From Terriglobales bacterium (GTDB lineage Bacteria > Acidobacteriota > Terriglobia > Terriglobales > Acidobacteriaceae), in contig JBBRZF010000005.1 of NCBI GenBank assembly GCA_038236965.1, forward strand, positions 1-44,394: DNA of 44,394 nt, read 5' to 3'. Under the pieces are notes generated by a model. It saw only the letters and a program-made list of their open reading frames with translations, did not search any database and was not told the origin of the DNA. Positions 14,377-26,458 of this stretch are shown here, piece after piece. Numbering within the stretch: position 1 is the stretch's first letter; every line of letters starts with the position of its first letter. The position numbers and the translations under genes were made by a program.

Positions 14377-14450
14377 TGGCTGGGCGACTAGGATTCGAAC
14401 CTAGACAAAGTGCGTCAAAGGCACTTGACCTACCATTAGTCGATCGCCCA
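14377..14450 (-). tRNA. tRNA-Gln (anticodon UUG)
   Basis: Hand-folded cloverleaf: acceptor stem TGGGCGA/TCGCCCA (7 bp, U1-A72), D stem GACT/GGTC, anticodon stem AGTGC/GCACT with loop CTTTGAC (anticodon TTG), variable loop TTGT, T stem CTAGG/CCTAG with loop TTCGAAT, discriminator G and encoded CCA; 74 nt. Confidence 0.9.
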
Positions 14451-20681: not shown

Positions 20682-22787
20682 TTAGTCTTCTTCTTCCACT
20701 TCTTCGCCCTTGGCAAGCTTGGCGGCAGCAACGATCTTTTCCTGCTGCACGGCGGGGACGAAGTCGTAGTGGTCCATTTCCATGTTGAAGCTGCCGCGGC
20801 CTTGCGTCATGGAGGTAAGGTCGGTTCCGTAGGTGAGCATCTCGCTCATGGGGGCGTGCGCCTTGACCACGGTGTTTCCGCCCTTGTTGTCCATGCCCTG
20901 TATGCGTCCGCGACGAGAGTTGAGATCGCCCATGATGGCCCCGGCGAATTCGTCGGGAATGGTGATCTCGACACTCATTACGGGTTCGAGCAGGGTTGGC
21001 TTGGCAATCTCCATGGCCTTTTTGAAAGCGATGCGTCCGGCTTTTTTGAAGGACATTTCGTTGGAATCGACGTCGTGATAGGAGCCGTCGTAGAGGGTGA
21101 CGCGGAAATCGACGACCGGGAAGCCGGCGAGGAATCCACGGGCTGCGCCTTCGACGATCCCCTTTTCGACGGCGGGAATGAAGTTCTTGGGAATGGAGCC
21201 GCCGAAGATGTCGTTGACGAATTCGAACTTGCCACCGCGCGGCAAGGGATCCATTTTGATTTTGCAATCGCCGAACTGACCGTGTCCGCCGGATTGCTTT
21301 TTGTGGCGGCCCTGCACGTCGGCGTGTCCGCGAATGGTTTCGCGATACGGAACCTTGGGCGCCTTGAGCACGACTTCCGTGTGGTAGCGCTTCTTCAGTT
21401 TGCTGACGATGACCTCGATGTGCTGCTGTCCGGTTCCGGCGATGAGGATGTCATTGGTCTGCGCGTCGCGGAAGAAGCGCAGCATGATGTCCTCTTCCAT
21501 GAGCTTGTGTACACCGACGCCGAGTTTGTCTTCGTCGGCGCGGGTCTTGGGCTCGATGGCAAAGGTGATGGCAGGTTCGGGGAAGGTGACCACCGGGAAG
21601 ACGATGGGCGCGGATTTGTCGCCGAGCGAATCTCCGGTGAGTGTGTCTTTCAACTTTGCGACGACGCCGATGTCTCCGGCATGAAGTTCCTGGACGGGAA
21701 CGGCGTTCTTGCCCTGCAAGATGGAAAGATGGGCGAACTTTTCCGTGGTGCTGCGGGTGAAGTTCTGAACGGCGGCATCGTTCTTGAGAACCCCGCTGTA
21801 CACCTTGAAATAGGTGATGCGTCCGGAGAAGGCGTCGCTCATGGTCTTGAAGGCGAAGAGCGAAAGCGGATCGCTGTCGGTGGTTTTGCGAACGGCGGGA
21901 GCGCCATTGCCTTCGGCGGCTGCGGCAGCGACGGTTTCGCGTTCTGAGGCGGTGGGCAGGTAGTCGACGATGAAGTCGAGGACTTCGTCGGTTCCCATGT
22001 TGCCGAGGCCGGAGGAGAAAAGTACAGGGAAGATCTTGTCTTCGCGAATCGCGTTGTGGAGACCGCCGATGATGTGCTCTTCGGCGATGGTGCCGGTGTT
22101 GAAGAACTCTTCCATGAGAGAGTCATCGCCTTCGGCGACGAGTTCGACAAGGGCTTCGTGCGCTGCCTTGGCTTCTTCCGCCATATTGGCCGGGATATCG
22201 CCGACGGTGGCTTTACCGTTGCCGCTCATCTCGTAGGTGTAAGCCTTCATCTTGACGAGATCGATGACGCCGGTGAAAGTTTTTTCCGAGCCGATGGGAA
22301 GTTGCACAGGGACGACGGTGCGTCCGAAGGTGCTGGTGAGCGATTCCATGACGCGAGTGAAGTCCGCGCGTTCGCGGTCCATGCGAGTACAAACGACCAT
22401 GCGCGGCAATTTCAATTCTTCGGCGTAGCCCCATATCTTCTGGGTGACGACCTGGACGCCGCTGACGGCATCCACCACCACGATGGAGGCTTCGACGGCG
22501 GGCATCACCATTTCGGATTCATGGACGAACTGGTTGAATCCGGGCGTATCGATGATGTTGATCTTGGTCTTGCCCCACTCGGCATAGGCGAGCGAACTGG
22601 CGGTGGTCATCTGTCGGGCGATCGCTTCTTCGTCGTAATCGGTGACAGTGGTGCCATCGTCGACGCGGCCTAAACGCTGCGTGGATCCGGCGGTGAACAA
22701 CATGGCTGAAACAAGGGAAGTTTTGCCGGAATGAGAATGGCCTACCACGGCCACATTGCGGATATTCGCGCCTTCGTAACTCTTCAC
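20682..22787 (-). CDS. Elongation factor G family translational GTPase (EF-G paralog)
   Basis: GTG start at 22787 with a TAAGGAGT RBS 6 nt upstream (the track ORF extends to an upstream GTG). It has G1 AVVGHSHSGKTSL, DTPG, and EF-G domains II-V. The sequence diverges from canonical FusA (GHSHSGKTS instead of AHIDAGKTT), consistent with an EF-G2-type paralog. Confidence 0.93.
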   Translation of the reverse strand: MKSYEGANIRNVAVVGHSHSGKTSLVSAMLFTAGSTQRLGRVDDGTTVTDYDEEAIARQMTTASSLAYAEWGKTKINIIDTPGFNQFVHESEMVMPAVEASIVVVDAVSGVQVVTQKIWGYAEELKLPRMVVCTRMDRERADFTRVMESLTSTFGRTVVPVQLPIGSEKTFTGVIDLVKMKAYTYEMSGNGKATVGDIPANMAEEAKAAHEALVELVAEGDDSLMEEFFNTGTIAEEHIIGGLHNAIREDKIFPVLFSSGLGNMGTDEVLDFIVDYLPTASERETVAAAAAEGNGAPAVRKTTDSDPLSLFAFKTMSDAFSGRITYFKVYSGVLKNDAAVQNFTRSTTEKFAHLSILQGKNAVPVQELHAGDIGVVAKLKDTLTGDSLGDKSAPIVFPVVTFPEPAITFAIEPKTRADEDKLGVGVHKLMEEDIMLRFFRDAQTNDILIAGTGQQHIEVIVSKLKKRYHTEVVLKAPKVPYRETIRGHADVQGRHKKQSGGHGQFGDCKIKMDPLPRGGKFEFVNDIFGGSIPKNFIPAVEKGIVEGAARGFLAGFPVVDFRVTLYDGSYHDVDSNEMSFKKAGRIAFKKAMEIAKPTLLEPVMSVEITIPDEFAGAIMGDLNSRRGRIQGMDNKGGNTVVKAHAPMSEMLTYGTDLTSMTQGRGSFNMEMDHYDFVPAVQQEKIVAAAKLAKGEEVEEED

Positions 22788-23395
22788 GAATGACTCCTTA
22801 GATTGGGGCCATTCCGCTGCCGTCGCGTGCCGAGACACGTGCGGCTATCGACTGCGCAGGGAACTGCGCGCTATGGGTGGAGTGCCTCGGCACAAAATCG
22901 TGACGGGAACTCAACGTACTGCCACCCATCTCACGCTGTAAAGCGCGGTTGGGAAACCCCGGTTGAACAGCCCGGAATGGCGGTCCGCGGGGATCAAGGT
23001 CTGACAAGACTTTGATCCGGGTGGAGAGTCACTCCCTAACCGAGGGCGGAAGGGCAGGCACCATGTCTCGCGGCATGGTGGACTACTTTGAGTAACGCGA
23101 AATCGTAGCACAGCGGTTTTGGAAGGAAAAGCGCTTCTGAGGCGGGAGCGGCAATTCCCTTCCCAATCCAGATTTATTTTACGAAAAAGCGCCGAACAGT
23201 TCGACTCTGGTTCTTCGACTCCGGAAAGTTGCGACCGGGGAGAAGGGTGGCGCATCTTACGTAAGGTCAGAGACCCCAATGGGTATGCTTCGGGATGCTC
23301 TTCTACTGAGGCGTGTCTTTCGGGCAGCATCTTCGGGTAACATGGGGGAAACAATAACGGAGCGGGAATTGTTGCTCCTTGAGGATACGCACTGC

Positions 23396-24079
23396 ATGAA
23401 TCGTAAATGGATGCTGCTGGCACTCGCCATCATGATGTTGTTAACCGGGCTCAGCGCTTTCGCCGCCGACACCACGGCCCTACGTCCGCCGAAGGGCGCG
23501 AAGGTCGCGATCCTCATATTTGAAGATCTGCAGTGCCCTGATTGTGGTCGCGTCGAGCCCATCATCGAAGAAGCAGCGAAGACTTACAAGATTCCGATCG
23601 TCCGCCACGACTTCCCTCTGCCGCAGCATAACTGGAGCTTCGACGCGCATATCCTGGCACGGTATTTCGATACGTTCTCGCCGGAGTTGGGCGAGGAATG
23701 GCGCCGCTATTGCCTGAAGAACCAACCCAGCATCACGAAGAATAATTTGCAGGGCATCGCTACGAACTTCGCTTCGCAACATGGGAAGACGATACCCGTG
23801 TTCATCGATCCGAAGGGTGAACTGGCAGCCAAGGTGAAGTCGGATTTCGCTTTGGGGCAGCGCGTTGGCGTGGAACATACGCCGACCATCTACATCGTAA
23901 GCAACACGCAACGCGGAACTCCGTTCGTGGAAGTGGTGGACCGTACGCAGCTTTATCAACTGATCGACCAGATGATGAAGGGCGCGGAAGAGGTTCCGGC
24001 AGAGAAGGCCAAGACTCCGGCCAAGACGACCAAGAAGGCCGCGGCCAAGAAGACAACGAAGACGGAAGCGAAGAAATAG
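23396..24079 (+). CDS. DsbA-family thioredoxin-fold protein (CPDC active site) with a Lys/Ala/Thr-rich histone-H1-like C-terminal tail
   Basis: ATG at 23396 (GAGGAT upstream). Signal peptide MNRKWMLLALAIMMLLTGLSAFAA. Active-site FEDLQCPDCGR. C-terminal tail AEKAKTPAKTTKKAAAKKTTKTEAKK. Confidence 0.85.
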   Translation: MNRKWMLLALAIMMLLTGLSAFAADTTALRPPKGAKVAILIFEDLQCPDCGRVEPIIEEAAKTYKIPIVRHDFPLPQHNWSFDAHILARYFDTFSPELGEEWRRYCLKNQPSITKNNLQGIATNFASQHGKTIPVFIDPKGELAAKVKSDFALGQRVGVEHTPTIYIVSNTQRGTPFVEVVDRTQLYQLIDQMMKGAEEVPAEKAKTPAKTTKKAAAKKTTKTEAKK

Positions 24080-24100
24080 TTTTGCGTGGCAGGATTCGGA

Positions 24101-24128
24101 GCCCGCCCGAGTGGCGGGCTTTTCTGTG
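24101..24128 (+). terminator. Rho-independent terminator of the DsbA-like gene
   Basis: GCCCGCC-CGAGT-GGCGGGC followed by TTTTCTGTG, 22 nt after the stop. Confidence 0.8.
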
Positions 24129-24131
24129 TAG

Positions 24132-24167
24132 AAAAAACGAACCCCGCCTGGGCGACAGGCGGGGTTC
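24132..24167 (-). terminator. Rho-independent terminator of the Sec-peroxiredoxin gene
   Basis: GAACCCCGCCTG-TCGCC-CAGGCGGGGTTC followed by GTTTTTTC on the minus strand, 20 nt after the stop at 24188. The two convergent genes have separate, non-overlapping terminators. Confidence 0.8.
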
Positions 24168-24187
24168 GGTGAATATCTACTACTTCC

Positions 24188-24676
24188 CTATTTCAATTTT
24201 TCCAGCACGGCAAAAACTTCGTTGTTCTCTGGTTGCTGGTCAAGCGGGTAGACCTTGGCGTGAGCCAGGATTCCCTGCTTGTCGATGATGAAGAGAGCAC
24301 GTTCGTTGATGCCGGGAACAGGCGGCCCTTCGCGAAGGATGCCGTACCTGGTGGCGACAGCGCCGTGGGGATAGAAATCGCTGCACAAAGGATATTTGAG
24401 CCAGCCGATGTCACGCTTCTGCCAAGCGACATGACTGGGAATGGAATCTACGCTAATGCCCACGACCTGGGCATCGTAGCCGGCGAACTTATCGAGGTCC
24501 GCATTGTAGGCCGGCATTTGGGCGGTTCAAACCGGTGTCCAGTCGAGCGGATAAAAGGCGAGGACGACGTTCTGTTTGCCGCGGTAATCGCTCAAACGAA
24601 AAGTCATCTTTTCGTTTCCGACGACGGCGGGAACTTCGAAGTCCGGAGCCTGGTCGCCCACTTTCAGTGGTGCCAT
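24188..24676 (-). CDS. bcp: Bcp/PrxQ-type peroxiredoxin with an in-frame TGA at the peroxidatic-Cys position (candidate selenocysteine peroxiredoxin, 162 aa)
   Basis: ATG at 24676 with a GGAGGA RBS. Translation reads [49 protein letters not shown]-[TGA at 24527-24529, codon 50][16 protein letters not shown]... and continues in frame into the 109-aa track ORF (24188-24517). E. coli Bcp reads MNPLKAGDIAPKFSLP...VLVYFYPKAMTPGCTVQACG, so the TGA aligns exactly with the catalytic Cys. There is no resolving Cys five residues downstream. Confidence 0.75.
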
Positions 24677-24941
24677 TTTGATCCTCCGCAAAGTACGAAG
24701 TGCTATGGAGTCCTTGGTGGTTCACGACGATTCTAGTCTTGTGGGCACTCGGCGGGCAAGTTCGAGGCACGGCAGCGACAAAATTATGACGGTGGGCAGG
24801 AAAACGCCGCAGCTTTGGGGAGGCATCGTAGAGGCATGGCCGTTGTGTGCGGAGAAGTGTCTCTGCGCCTGTTCATAACCGCATTCCTGGAAGCGTCAAC
24901 GGCGCGCTACGCAAGTTGCCGGGTGATCGAGGAGGATTAAG

Positions 24942-25862
24942 ATGTTCGGATTTTCCCGCTATAACTACGAAGAGTTCGACCGTAATACTTTGGCGAAAGA
25001 CTTCTTGAAGAGCAAATTCGGCGATGCGCCGGAACCGGGCGAACGCGCGCCGGACTTCGAGTTACGCACCGTGGAGGGGAACAAGATACGGCTTGCGGAT
25101 TTCAAGGGCGAGAAGAACGTGGTGCTCACGTTCGGGTCGGCAACGTGTCCGCTGACGTCGAGTTCGATTTCCGACTTGAACGATCTTTATAACGATTACG
25201 CAGGAGAGGATGTGGAGGGGCTGTTCGTCTACGTGCGCGAAGCGCATCCGGGCGAAGAGATGCCGGCACATGCGTCGATGGCGGATAAAGTGGCTGCGGC
25301 AGAACTGTTCCGCGCGGAAGAAGAGATAGAAATTCCCGTGCTGATCGACGATATCAACGGGAAGGCGCATCGCCGATATGGATCGCTGCCGAATCCGACA
25401 TTCCTGATCGACAAGAGTGGTCGCATCGCATTCCGCTCGCTGGCTACGCGCCCGAGCGTGATTGCCGACGCGCTGGATGAACTGCTGGAGCGTCAGGAGG
25501 AACGAGGCACGGAACATGCGGTGGTGCATGGAGGAGAAGACTCGGCGATGCCATCGCTGAAATCGTTTTTCCATGTGCATCGCGCGCTGCAGCGGGGCGG
25601 GAATAGAGCAGTGAAAAATTTCGAACGCGAGATGGGCATACCGGGAAAAGTTGCGGTGACGGCGAGTCGCATTGCGCGACCGCTGGCGGATAATCCGGGC
25701 ACGGTCGCCGGAACCGCACTGGCCGTCGTGGGCGTAGTCGGACTGGGATTGTGGGCGGGACTTGCCTTGCGTAAGCGTCGCTTCAATCAGACGCCGTACC
25801 GGTTCCCGAAGTACGGTCGGCGCGCGGATGGGCCCGATGATTACGAGGCGGTGGGAATTTAG
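24942..25862 (+). CDS. Iodothyronine-deiodinase-like thioredoxin-fold protein (Cys form, FGSATCP) with a C-terminal TM anchor
   Basis: GAGGAGGAT RBS before the ATG. APDFELRTVEGNKIRLADFKGEKNVVLTFGSATCPLTS matches the deiodinase active-site signature FGS(C/A)T(U/C)P, family assignment from memory. C-terminal hydrophobic helix GTVAGTALAVVGVVGLGLWAGLAL then a basic tail. Confidence 0.7.
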   Translation: MFGFSRYNYEEFDRNTLAKDFLKSKFGDAPEPGERAPDFELRTVEGNKIRLADFKGEKNVVLTFGSATCPLTSSSISDLNDLYNDYAGEDVEGLFVYVREAHPGEEMPAHASMADKVAAAELFRAEEEIEIPVLIDDINGKAHRRYGSLPNPTFLIDKSGRIAFRSLATRPSVIADALDELLERQEERGTEHAVVHGGEDSAMPSLKSFFHVHRALQRGGNRAVKNFEREMGIPGKVAVTASRIARPLADNPGTVAGTALAVVGVVGLGLWAGLALRKRRFNQTPYRFPKYGRRADGPDDYEAVGI

Positions 25863-25871
25863 AGAGACATC

Positions 25872-25994
25872 GGGTAATTGGGTAATTTGTAAATTGGTAA
25901 TTTGAAGATCAAAGGCAGAGGGCGCGGAGGAATCGAAGGACAATTGAGTCATTGGGTTATTGAGTCATTTGGGTTATTGAGTCATTGAGTCAAG
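25872..25994. repeat. Left boundary repeats of the low-GC cassette: (GGTAATT)x4, a partial GGGCGCGGAGGAATC copy, then (TTGAGTCATT[T]GGGTTA)x3.5
   Basis: Direct reading; the TTGAGTCAT units are the reverse complement of the AATGACTCA units at 26578-26625. Confidence 0.75.
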
Positions 25995-26026
25995 TAAACC
26001 CAGTGAAGATTGAGGATCAATGGCAA

Positions 26027-26059
26027 GGGCGCGGAGGAATCCGCGCCCTTTGTTGTTTC
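26027..26059 (+). terminator. Terminator hairpin A (GGGCGCGG-AGGAAT-CCGCGCCC + TTTGTTGTTTC), identical to hairpin B
   Basis: A 33-nt exact duplicate of 26545-26577, with an 8-bp GC stem and a U-rich tail. A degenerate third copy (GGGCGCGGAGGAATC) is at 25920-25934. Confidence 0.75.
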
Positions 26060-26092
26060 TACGGTCGAACGAAATTTGAATTTGGTGGTGGT

Positions 26093-26458
26093 ATGGGGAT
26101 ATCTCGCCAGCTAACTTCTCACGGCGTAGTGTATTGTTGGCAGGTCACGATGCTGCGCTCTGAACTTTGGTGTGGATGTGTCGAGTTGAAGCCACTAGAC
26201 CGTGCTGAATACGGCGCGGCAGGAGCGTTTACGAACATCATCACTTGGGCGCGAGATGCGGAGGAGTTCCGCAGTAAAGCAGACACCATCGCAACGAGCC
26301 TCAAGATGTACGTCGCACAAACAGAAAAAGTTGAACCAGTCGGAGATTACTCTGATGAATGGCCAGAGGAATTCGAAGACATGGTTAGACGTGCCGAGTC
26401 AAATCCGAATGCCATTATCTATGGCACTTTTCATAACTATCCACACGACCAAGCCTAA
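26093..26458 (+). CDS. Hypothetical acidic protein in the low-GC cassette (103-121 aa; start 26093 or 26150)
   Basis: ORF with markedly lower GC (about 50%) than its neighbours. ...MLRSELWCGCVELKPLDRAEYGAAGAFTNIITWARDAEEFRSKADTIATSLKMYVAQTEKVEPVGDYSDEWPEEFEDMVRRAESNPNAIIYGTFHNYPHDQA. The 157-aa track ORF begins before hairpin A and is probably too long. No recognisable domain. Confidence 0.35.
   Translation: MGISRQLTSHGVVYCWQVTMLRSELWCGCVELKPLDRAEYGAAGAFTNIITWARDAEEFRSKADTIATSLKMYVAQTEKVEPVGDYSDEWPEEFEDMVRRAESNPNAIIYGTFHNYPHDQA

Follow-up and report, generated by a model that had tools for sequence, protein, structure and literature searches.

Gene structure at the locus

The window analyzed here is the whole 44,394-nt stretch (positions 1 to 44,394, forward strand) of contig JBBRZF010000005.1 in assembly GCA_038236965.1, from a Terriglobales bacterium of the Acidobacteriaceae. 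On its minus strand, a peroxiredoxin (Prx) open reading frame (ORF) is interrupted by a TGA codon at the position of the peroxidatic cysteine. As judged from comparative sequence evidence, this is very probably an intact gene for a 162-residue Prx of the AhpC/TSA fold, with selenocysteine (Sec, U) as the peroxidatic residue (P43xxxT47xxU50, together with Arg126). The features of the gene are the following.

24188 to 24676, minus strand: full-length Prx ORF, 162 codons including UGA-50, then TAG at 24190-24188
24527 to 24529, minus strand: in-frame TGA, the only one in the ORF, read here as the probable Sec codon (U50)
24682 to 24687, minus strand: Shine-Dalgarno site GGAGGA, read from the sequence, with a 5-nt spacer to the ATG at 24676
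24138 to 24168, minus strand: intrinsic terminator, a 13-bp stem with 10 G-C pairs followed by TTTTTT, 20 nt past the TAG
24730 to 24759, minus strand: possible sigma-70-type promoter TTGCCC-18-TAGAAT upstream of the ORF, a weak consensus match (9/12)

Translation of the minus strand from the ATG at 24676-24674 yielded 49 codons, the TGA at 24529-24527, and a further 112 codons in an unshifted frame, ending in VLEKLK before the TAG. The predicted product contained P43-x-x-x-T47-x-x-U50, corresponding to the PxxxTxxC active-site motif, and the conserved catalytic Arg126, which was invariant. Pfam AhpC-TSA (PF00578) matched the read-through product over profile positions 1 to 123 of 124, across the UGA (E value, 9.8e-36). 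The deposited gene call covers only a 109-aa C-terminal piece (P0104), starting at an ATG at 24517, four codons past the TGA, which has no Shine-Dalgarno site. A first-pass annotation of the window had proposed the upstream start with its ribosome-binding site, the continuous frame on both sides of the TGA, the fragmentary nature of the annotated product, and the lack of a resolving Cys at position +5, and each of these proposals held. With its Shine-Dalgarno site and 13-bp terminator, the Prx gene is a normal transcription unit. A second sigma-70-like pair, TTGAAC-16-TACAAT (24503-24530, minus strand), spans the UGA inside the ORF, upstream of the 109-aa fragment, and is probably due to chance.

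The Logan assembly of run SRR19962014 was 100% identical to the window over positions 21542-26056, TGA included. Because the same codon was obtained in this independent assembly, the TGA is not an artifact of one assembler. A global change of the code, with TGA as a sense codon, was rejected, as many ORFs of the window, several of them supported by Pfam, end at TGA. Among 57 mechanically generated candidates for other TGA-interrupted genes in the window, only the Prx resembled coding sequence. The residue at +5 from the active site is Pro55, and the TGA-containing members of the family (hereafter Sec forms) share no conserved Cys. Cys98 of the window protein was considered as a resolving residue of the family and dropped, since just 23 of the 114 Sec forms have it.

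TGA and Cys forms of the family

The column occupied by the TGA was Cys in all 21 aligned full-length homologues (61 to 75% identity; motif DWTP[VT]C), which places the TGA at the catalytic Cys, as the first-pass annotation had it. The same column was Cys in 89/89 Cys-form genes from metagenomes. To find further TGA-containing genes, one genome per species (GTDB set, 596 Gb) was scanned for back-translated FYPxDW[TS]Px with TGA as the next codon, a pattern for which the chance expectation over the 596 Gb was about one match by our own estimate. At least 119 loci matched, and 117 of these were Prx ORFs open in frame past the TGA. A TGA at the peroxidatic codon together with an intact downstream frame was therefore found in at least 117 other species, belonging to at least eight phyla. 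A matching metagenome scan with TGY in place of TGA served as a control and gave 120 Cys-form genes.

The frame beyond the TGA mostly extended for 107 to 121 codons in the 117 loci, with about 205 codons in approximately 10 loci and a few frames ending at contig edges. The proteins with extensions of about 205 residues past the UGA (L076, L046, L049, L110, L065, L071, L077, L073, L017, and L097) came from Myxococcota, Deltaproteobacteria, and Planctomycetota and thus have an additional domain of about 95 residues at the C terminus. All but 2 of the 119 listed pattern matches were clean Sec-peroxiredoxins; the exceptions were L031, a chance match, and L086, which has just 25 codons past the TGA before its contig ends, on a contig labeled as a Mycobacterium leprae metagenome-assembled genome (MAG).

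Among the matches listed, the TGA carriers closest to the window were MAGs of Terriglobales, Acidobacteriaceae, and “Ca. Angelobacter,” and the nearest was L083, identical at 118 of 162 residues. Further carriers were found in Thermoanaerobaculia, Blastocatellia, Pyrinomonadaceae, Myxococcota, Deltaproteobacteria, Binatia, Ignavibacteria, and others, and also in cultured Bacillaceae, namely, Neobacillus spp., Schinkia azotoformans LMG 9581, Anaerobacillus arseniciselenatis DSM 15340, and Mesobacillus persicus. When the window and L083 were compared after the UGA, the rate of nonsynonymous substitution (dN) was 0.06 to 0.21 and that of synonymous substitution (dS) 0.61 to 0.83, with a dN/dS of approximately 0.1 to 0.25, and constraint here was no weaker than ahead of the UGA. 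The low ratio indicates continued translation of the part beyond the UGA after the lineages of the window and L083 diverged. The window protein also carries the Sec-form signatures Leu44, Met54, and Tyr57. Leu44 (window position ∼24545-24547), beside the active site, was present in 113/114 Sec forms, with Ala in 67/89 Cys forms; Met54 was replaced by Val, Ile, or Leu in 28 of 114 Sec forms.

The window gene is a member of the known Sec-peroxiredoxin (Prx, TxxU) family and not a new kind of selenoprotein gene: it combines the domain, the Sec/Cys pair at the catalytic column, TGA-containing orthologues, and the Sec-specific downstream structure described below. The novelty implied by the first-pass annotation was therefore too high, TxxU Sec-peroxiredoxins having been known since 2001, when the founding member, PrxU of Eubacterium acidaminophilum, was described (Söhling et al. 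2001, as cited in PMC13188914). The Sargasso Sea data contained 43 Sec-Prx genes, placed at that time, as in the early selenoproteome papers, under COG1225 (PMC1088965). A survey in 2006 listed 12 Sec-Prx in genomes, several Cys-to-Sec events, and Acidobacteria among the phyla with selenoproteins (PMC1794560), and a survey in 2016 counted 91 Sec-Prx genes in 78 organisms (PMC5029168). Sec-Prx TxxU is among the commonest bacterial selenoprotein families (PMC1088965, PMC1794560, PMC5029168, PMC13188914). Its Cys homologues are widespread, Sec and Cys have been exchanged repeatedly, and the family is known from Deltaproteobacteria, Firmicutes, Acidobacteria, and others (PMC1794560, PMC5029168). 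A literature search joining PrxU and SECIS returned no papers.

The window protein shares with PrxU and the rest of this family the AhpC/TSA domain and Sec in place of the peroxidatic Cys in PxxxTxxU. With NF040737 it scored 81.6 bits against a cutoff of 270 and is no PrxU orthologue; it is also shorter, with 162 residues against a 233-position model, and belongs to a distinct FYPLDWTP[VT]U subgroup. It reached no NCBIfam cutoff. The best match among solved structures was the 2-Cys Prx BAS1 at 94 bits (2-Cys Prx chains, 90 to 94 bits), followed by chains of Mycobacterium tuberculosis AhpE (Rv2238c), a 1-Cys, mycoredoxin-dependent enzyme, at 83 to 84 bits over residues 4 to 142. Like AhpE, the protein has about 150 to 160 residues, no C-terminal arm, and no conserved resolving Cys, and some homologues are named “mycoredoxin-dependent peroxiredoxin” by JGI. 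It differs from AhpE and Prx1 in having Sec for Cys and in its active site, DWTPVU, the corresponding contexts being LAFTGIC in AhpE and LDFTFVC in Prx1. By match scores, rather than by active-site profile, the protein thus appeared closer to Prx1/AhpE than to Bcp/PrxQ. The Bcp/PrxQ label given in the first-pass annotation was not sustained, the scores being far below the cutoffs for both NCBIfam BCP (PRK09437; 50.1 bits against 140) and PrxQ (NF053650; 38.3 bits against 260). Bcp-type chains in the PDB scored 68 to 70 bits, below 2-Cys Prx and AhpE; what is shared with Bcp/PrxQ is the thioredoxin-fold peroxiredoxin superfamily and overall size. Some Bcp enzymes are of the 1-Cys type, so the lack of a Cys at +5 would not by itself exclude that group.

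A two-hairpin element downstream of the UGA

For the RNA analysis, positions were numbered from the U of the UGA as nt 1. The 72 to 77 nt after the UGA aligned without gaps across all Sec forms, and two hairpins were predicted in sequences from different phyla.

24453 to 24529, minus strand: UGA and whole two-hairpin element, a candidate Sec insertion sequence (SECIS), matched by a covariance model over model positions 1 to 77
24479 to 24515, minus strand: hairpin 1, nt 15-51, with a 6-bp GCCGGC/GCCGGC base starting 11 nt past the UGA
24455 to 24475, minus strand: hairpin 2, nt 55-75, GAUGCCCA-GGUCG-UGGGCAUU, with 8 bp and a 5-nt loop

The GCCGGC segments at nt 15-20 and 46-51 pair in the minimum-free-energy (MFE) fold. 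The first-pass annotation had located them exactly, at 12-17 and 43-48 nt past the UGA, and had suggested that they could form the base of a stem resembling a bacterial SECIS (bSECIS). The stem proved to be real, as it covaries in relatives, and is only the first of two hairpins; the single canonical stem-loop that had been sought missed the second and much better conserved one with its GGU-type loop. In the window, hairpin 1 had an MFE of −14.5 kcal/mol (z score, −2.0). Its upper part is weak and interrupted, with two 2-bp steps and an apical loop of GACCU (nt 31-35). The lower stem showed covariation, with pair 18:48 as GC in eight and CG in two sequences, pair 21:45 as GC in five and AU in two, and double changes at 15:51 and 16:50. 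Across ten acidobacterial Sec forms, the two-hairpin structure was 86.8% paired, with seven pairs changed on both sides; none of 500 column shuffles reached the observed values, and registers slid along the alignment paired only 28 to 43%. Elsewhere the lower stem is built from different codons: Bacilli have CCUUC/GAAGA, and Thermoanaerobaculia have CCGUCG/CGAACGG in a shifted register. With 91 sequences as input, RNAalifold found hairpin 2 only; since the register of hairpin 1 differs between clades, the named structures were scored per clade.

Hairpin 2 had an MFE of −12.3 kcal/mol and a z score of −4.2 in the window, where seven of seven pairs are intact. Its five core pairs were 99.8% paired over 88 distinct Sec sequences, among which pair 58:72 was AU in 46 and GC in 40, and a compensated swap of C61-G69 to G-C was found in two. 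Hairpin 2 follows hairpin 1 within 0 to 4 nt, and the end of hairpin 1, at nt 51-55 in most species, abuts the start of hairpin 2.

The key evidence that this RNA structure is Sec specific is the comparison of Sec with Cys forms. At the synonymous site 60, which pairs with G70, C or U was found in 115/115 Sec forms, while the close Cys orthologues had C in 27, G in 13, U in 5, and A in 2. Similarly, the synonymous site 69 was G in 112/115 Sec forms, while the close Cys orthologues were divided among G (21), C (21), and A (5). The unpaired loop bases G64 and U65 were invariant in 115/115 Sec forms; in Cys forms, G64 was present in about half and U65 was nearly invariant. All six core pairs of hairpin 2 formed in 102/115 Sec but only 6/90 Cys forms, and in none of the 10 Cys forms that encode the identical pentapeptide. 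Hairpin 2 appeared in the MFE fold of 109/115 Sec versus 8/89 Cys forms, and an enclosing helix of the hairpin 1 type in 110/115 versus 31/89. Mean MFE z scores were −3.1 (Sec) versus −0.3 (Cys) for the hairpin 1 region and −4.5 versus −0.9 for the hairpin 2 region. When the named structure was imposed on 47 Cys orthologues, 66.7% of pairs formed (hairpin 2, 74%; hairpin 1 lower helix, 60%). Relics of the GCCGGC stem were visible in some of these, as would be expected had Cys taken the place of Sec in that clade. The loop bases G31-A32 of hairpin 1 were equally conserved in Cys forms, so that their conservation is explained by the protein sequence.

A corresponding difference was seen in the encoded protein. 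Val71 was invariant in Sec forms (114/114), versus 46 Val, 31 Leu, and 8 Ile in Cys forms, and Gln70 and Gly73 were nearly invariant in Sec forms only (window position ∼24458-24469). The codons for Gln70, Val71, and Gly73 build hairpin 2, and the RNA structure thus apparently constrains the protein.

A covariance model (R1) was built from 106 Sec forms, with all acidobacterial relatives of the window left out. Within the 44-kb window it had a single match, which spanned the full model on the minus strand (24453-24529; 73.7 bits; E value, 4.1e-21), the next best hit scoring 11.5 bits. Held-out acidobacterial Sec forms scored 52 to 78 bits, and the 47 Cys orthologues scored 16 to 49 bits. No Rfam SECIS family was found in the window at either the gathering threshold or a permissive one, the only match being a chance microRNA hit with an E value of 2.2. 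The TGA codons in at least 117 other species, together with this Sec-specific structure, support the proposal of the first-pass annotation that the TGA is best read as Sec.

Probable decoding of the UGA and evolution of the locus

In bacteria, a structure just 3′ of the UGA tethers SelB·GTP·Sec-tRNA(Sec), which brings Sec to the ribosomal A site (PMC13188914). Translation of the window gene would start at the ATG at 24676 and continue past UGA-50 to the TAG at 24188, with the same complex, recruited by the mRNA structure just 3′ of UGA-50, inserting Sec. Hairpin 2 would be the putative SelB-binding hairpin, and hairpin 1 would act as a folded spacer that brings it to approximately the canonical distance from the ribosome; with a linker of 0 to 4 nt, the two could stack coaxially. 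Hairpin 2 was given the SelB role because G64 and U65 in its loop are the sole unpaired bases specific to Sec forms and because this loop is of the GGU type and closed by an A-U pair, which we take to resemble the SECIS loops of E. coli fdhF and of Moorella. In E. coli fdhF, the SECIS loop is GGUC, and G23 and U24 contact SelB. The spacer role was suggested by the abutment of hairpin 1 on hairpin 2 in most species, and the loop of hairpin 1 was not assigned to SelB because G31-A32 is equally conserved in Cys forms. As an alternative, hairpin 1 may be the SECIS and hairpin 2 an accessory. The enzyme itself would be expected, from Prx chemistry, to reduce peroxides through a selenenic acid intermediate and, as it has no conserved resolving Cys, to be recycled by an external thiol redoxin.

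Like the canonical SECIS of the E. coli fdhF type modeled by bSECISearch, the element is a coding-region structure directly 3′ of the UGA, its first helix starting at +11 nt. It differs in having two adjacent hairpins rather than one. Of the two, that placed at the canonical distance is weak in its upper stem and shows no Sec-specific sequence in its loop, and that whose loop looks canonical is found 59 nt past the UGA. The bSECIS consensus comprises an apical loop of 3 to 9 nt with G in its two initial positions, an upper stem of 4 to 16 bp, a distance of 16 to 37 nt from the UGA to the apical loop, and an MFE of ≤ −7.5 kcal/mol (PMC13188914). Both hairpins lie below this energy limit (−14.5 and −12.3 kcal/mol).

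Several results weigh against Sec insertion as set out above. A strict bSECIS-model scan of the window found no single hairpin that agrees with the model in every respect. The loop of hairpin 1 lies at 27 nt, within the range of 16 to 37, with only two contiguous base pairs closing GACCU; hairpin 2 fits in its 8 bp and its loop GGUCG, which lies at 59 nt, outside that range. The roles of the two hairpins are ones that we infer. No selA, selB, selD, or tRNA-Sec was detected on the 44-kb contig (ARAGORN; Pfam on about 30 ORFs), the approximately 30 ORFs being housekeeping by Pfam, e.g., RecG, a sigma factor, L9, Pth, L25, Prs, RuvB, EF-G, aconitase, Nramp, Mfd, PurE, and PurD. ARAGORN likewise found no tRNA-Sec in stretches of up to 8 kb around the 119 listed TGA-pattern loci, a result that is uninformative for whole genomes because linkage is not expected. 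There was no convincing SelD around the loci in a tblastn search with an E. coli SelD sequence as probe, which gave only weak matches (∼25% identity; E values, 1e-4 to 5e-6), all in Cys-form loci, and a search of all loci for the motif GxG[C/U]GCK yielded nothing. The Sec competence of this genome is accordingly an assumption drawn from the comparative evidence.

Alternatively, an ordinary Cys-peroxiredoxin gene could recently have acquired a nonsense mutation and become a pseudogene, or could look like one through an error of sequencing or assembly. Such a lesion would suit the database call of the 109-aa fragment only, the Cys in the closest full-length homologues (≤75% identity), and the contig without Sec genes. 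It is at odds with the identical base from a second assembler, with the TGA in L083 and 116 other listed species, with the presence in the window of Leu44, Met54, and Tyr57 and of intact hairpins, with a model score of 73.7 bits that lies within the Sec range and above every Cys orthologue, and with an intact downstream frame under purifying selection. This explanation is largely refuted and is considered very unlikely. Still harder to credit is that two products are made, a 49-aa peptide ending at the UGA and a 109-aa protein reinitiated at the ATG at 24517, even though this ATG lies four codons past the TGA and is the deposited start. It has no Shine-Dalgarno site, a strong one preceding the ATG at 24676 instead; neither piece would have the complete Prx fold or catalytic residue; Met54 is not conserved as a start, being Val, Ile, or Leu in 28/114 Sec forms; and the hairpins would be left without a role.

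It is also improbable, if somewhat less so, that the UGA is recoded as Cys or Ser by a tRNA(Sec)-like tRNA(Cys) (selC*) or by an acidobacterial allo-tRNA with a UCA anticodon, perhaps through SelB and the hairpins. Such tRNAs have been described from Deltaproteobacteria, Firmicutes, and Acidobacteria, and in E. coli they act as stop-codon suppressors (PMC5389517), and the features of the window are equally compatible with insertion of Sec or Cys. As we read that study, however, they are described as minor species (PMC5389517); the same element is spread over many phyla, with cultured Bacillaceae among its carriers; the PrxU family is experimentally verified as a selenoprotein family, as cited in PMC13188914; and the window holds no such tRNA.

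With Sec insertion retained as the favored explanation, a further proposal concerns the RNA itself. It is conceivable, although we would lean against it, that the tandem-hairpin element represents a distinct class of bacterial SECIS, in which a SelB-binding hairpin 2 at 59 nt works only by way of the folded hairpin 1 spacer and in which the needs of the RNA have frozen the protein sequence as [TA]-Q-V-[LVM]-G in all Sec forms across at least eight phyla. An element found in at least eight phyla, which has no Rfam family and does not fit the single-hairpin bSECIS model, might be of specialist interest.

The Prx gene has two thiol-redox neighbors in the window.

24942 to 25862, plus strand: redoxin/deiodinase-like protein of 306 aa in Cys form (FGSATCPLT), divergent neighbor and syntenic context
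23279 to 24079, plus strand: DsbA/Thioredoxin_4-like protein with an N-terminal hydrophobic leader, convergent neighbor (Pfam Thioredoxin_4, 5.6e-11)

The first of these matched Pfam AhpC-TSA (2.1e-16) and T4_deiodinase (6.9e-16) and scored 95.6 bits with NCBIfam deiodinase_rel, below the cutoff of 250. It has a hydrophobic C-terminal segment, and its family occurs as a selenoprotein in other bacteria. The gene order EF-G, DsbA-like, Prx, deiodinase-like redoxin, aconitase recurred, whole or in part, beside both Sec forms (L051, L083, L061, L058, and L116) and Cys forms (L158, L153, L179, L223, and others). In L083, the Prx is flanked by DsbA-like and EF-G genes, as in the window, and the DsbA-like gene is kept beside forms of both types. 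This shared neighborhood identifies the Sec and Cys forms as orthologues at one chromosomal locus, and the Terriglobales lineage holds both at the same locus. In a neighbor-joining tree built with the Sec/Cys column masked, the window paired with L083, a TGA form; this pair was sister to 46 Terriglobales Cys forms, and the whole group was nested among Sec forms. About six Sec/Cys switches were needed overall in this tree. As the Cys clade nests within Sec forms and its genes keep relics of the stem, replacement of Sec by Cys in the Terriglobales Cys clade is suggested.

Partial GCCGGC stems, scoring ≤49 bits, were kept in the metagenome Terriglobales Cys orthologues L203, L195, L126, L198, and L141 at the same locus. 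Such relics are consistent with a decaying SECIS after a recent Sec-to-Cys replacement. The deiodinase-like gene adjoins the Prx in the Sec loci L051, L116, L061, and L058 and in the Cys loci L198 and L155. Together, the DsbA-like, Prx, and deiodinase-like genes form a small thiol-redox cluster, with back-to-back terminator-like hairpins between the DsbA-like and Prx genes (24105-24168). Further along, a 157-aa ORF at 25985-26458 (plus strand) had no Pfam or NCBIfam match and a third-position GC content of 0.48, versus 0.58 to 0.81 in other chosen ORFs; it may be foreign or no real gene. The sole tRNA on the contig was an ordinary tRNA-Gln(UUG) at 14377-14450 (minus strand), between the ribose-phosphate pyrophosphokinase and GHMP-kinase genes.

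The main yield of the analysis is a correction of annotation, by which a 109-aa “fragment” becomes a full-length predicted selenoenzyme that is probably highly active, and the organism is marked as a likely selenium user. The FYPLDWTP[VT]U subgroup is common (at least 117 species) and, judged on the window protein, appears to be missed by current family models. A review from 2026 noted that bSECIS tools still miss a subset of elements (PMC13188914), and the tandem-hairpin signal, with its constraint on the protein, could inform such tools. The cultured Bacillaceae carriers could be put to a direct test. Since orthologues of both types share synteny, the Terriglobales locus would offer a clean natural experiment in the exchange of Sec and Cys.

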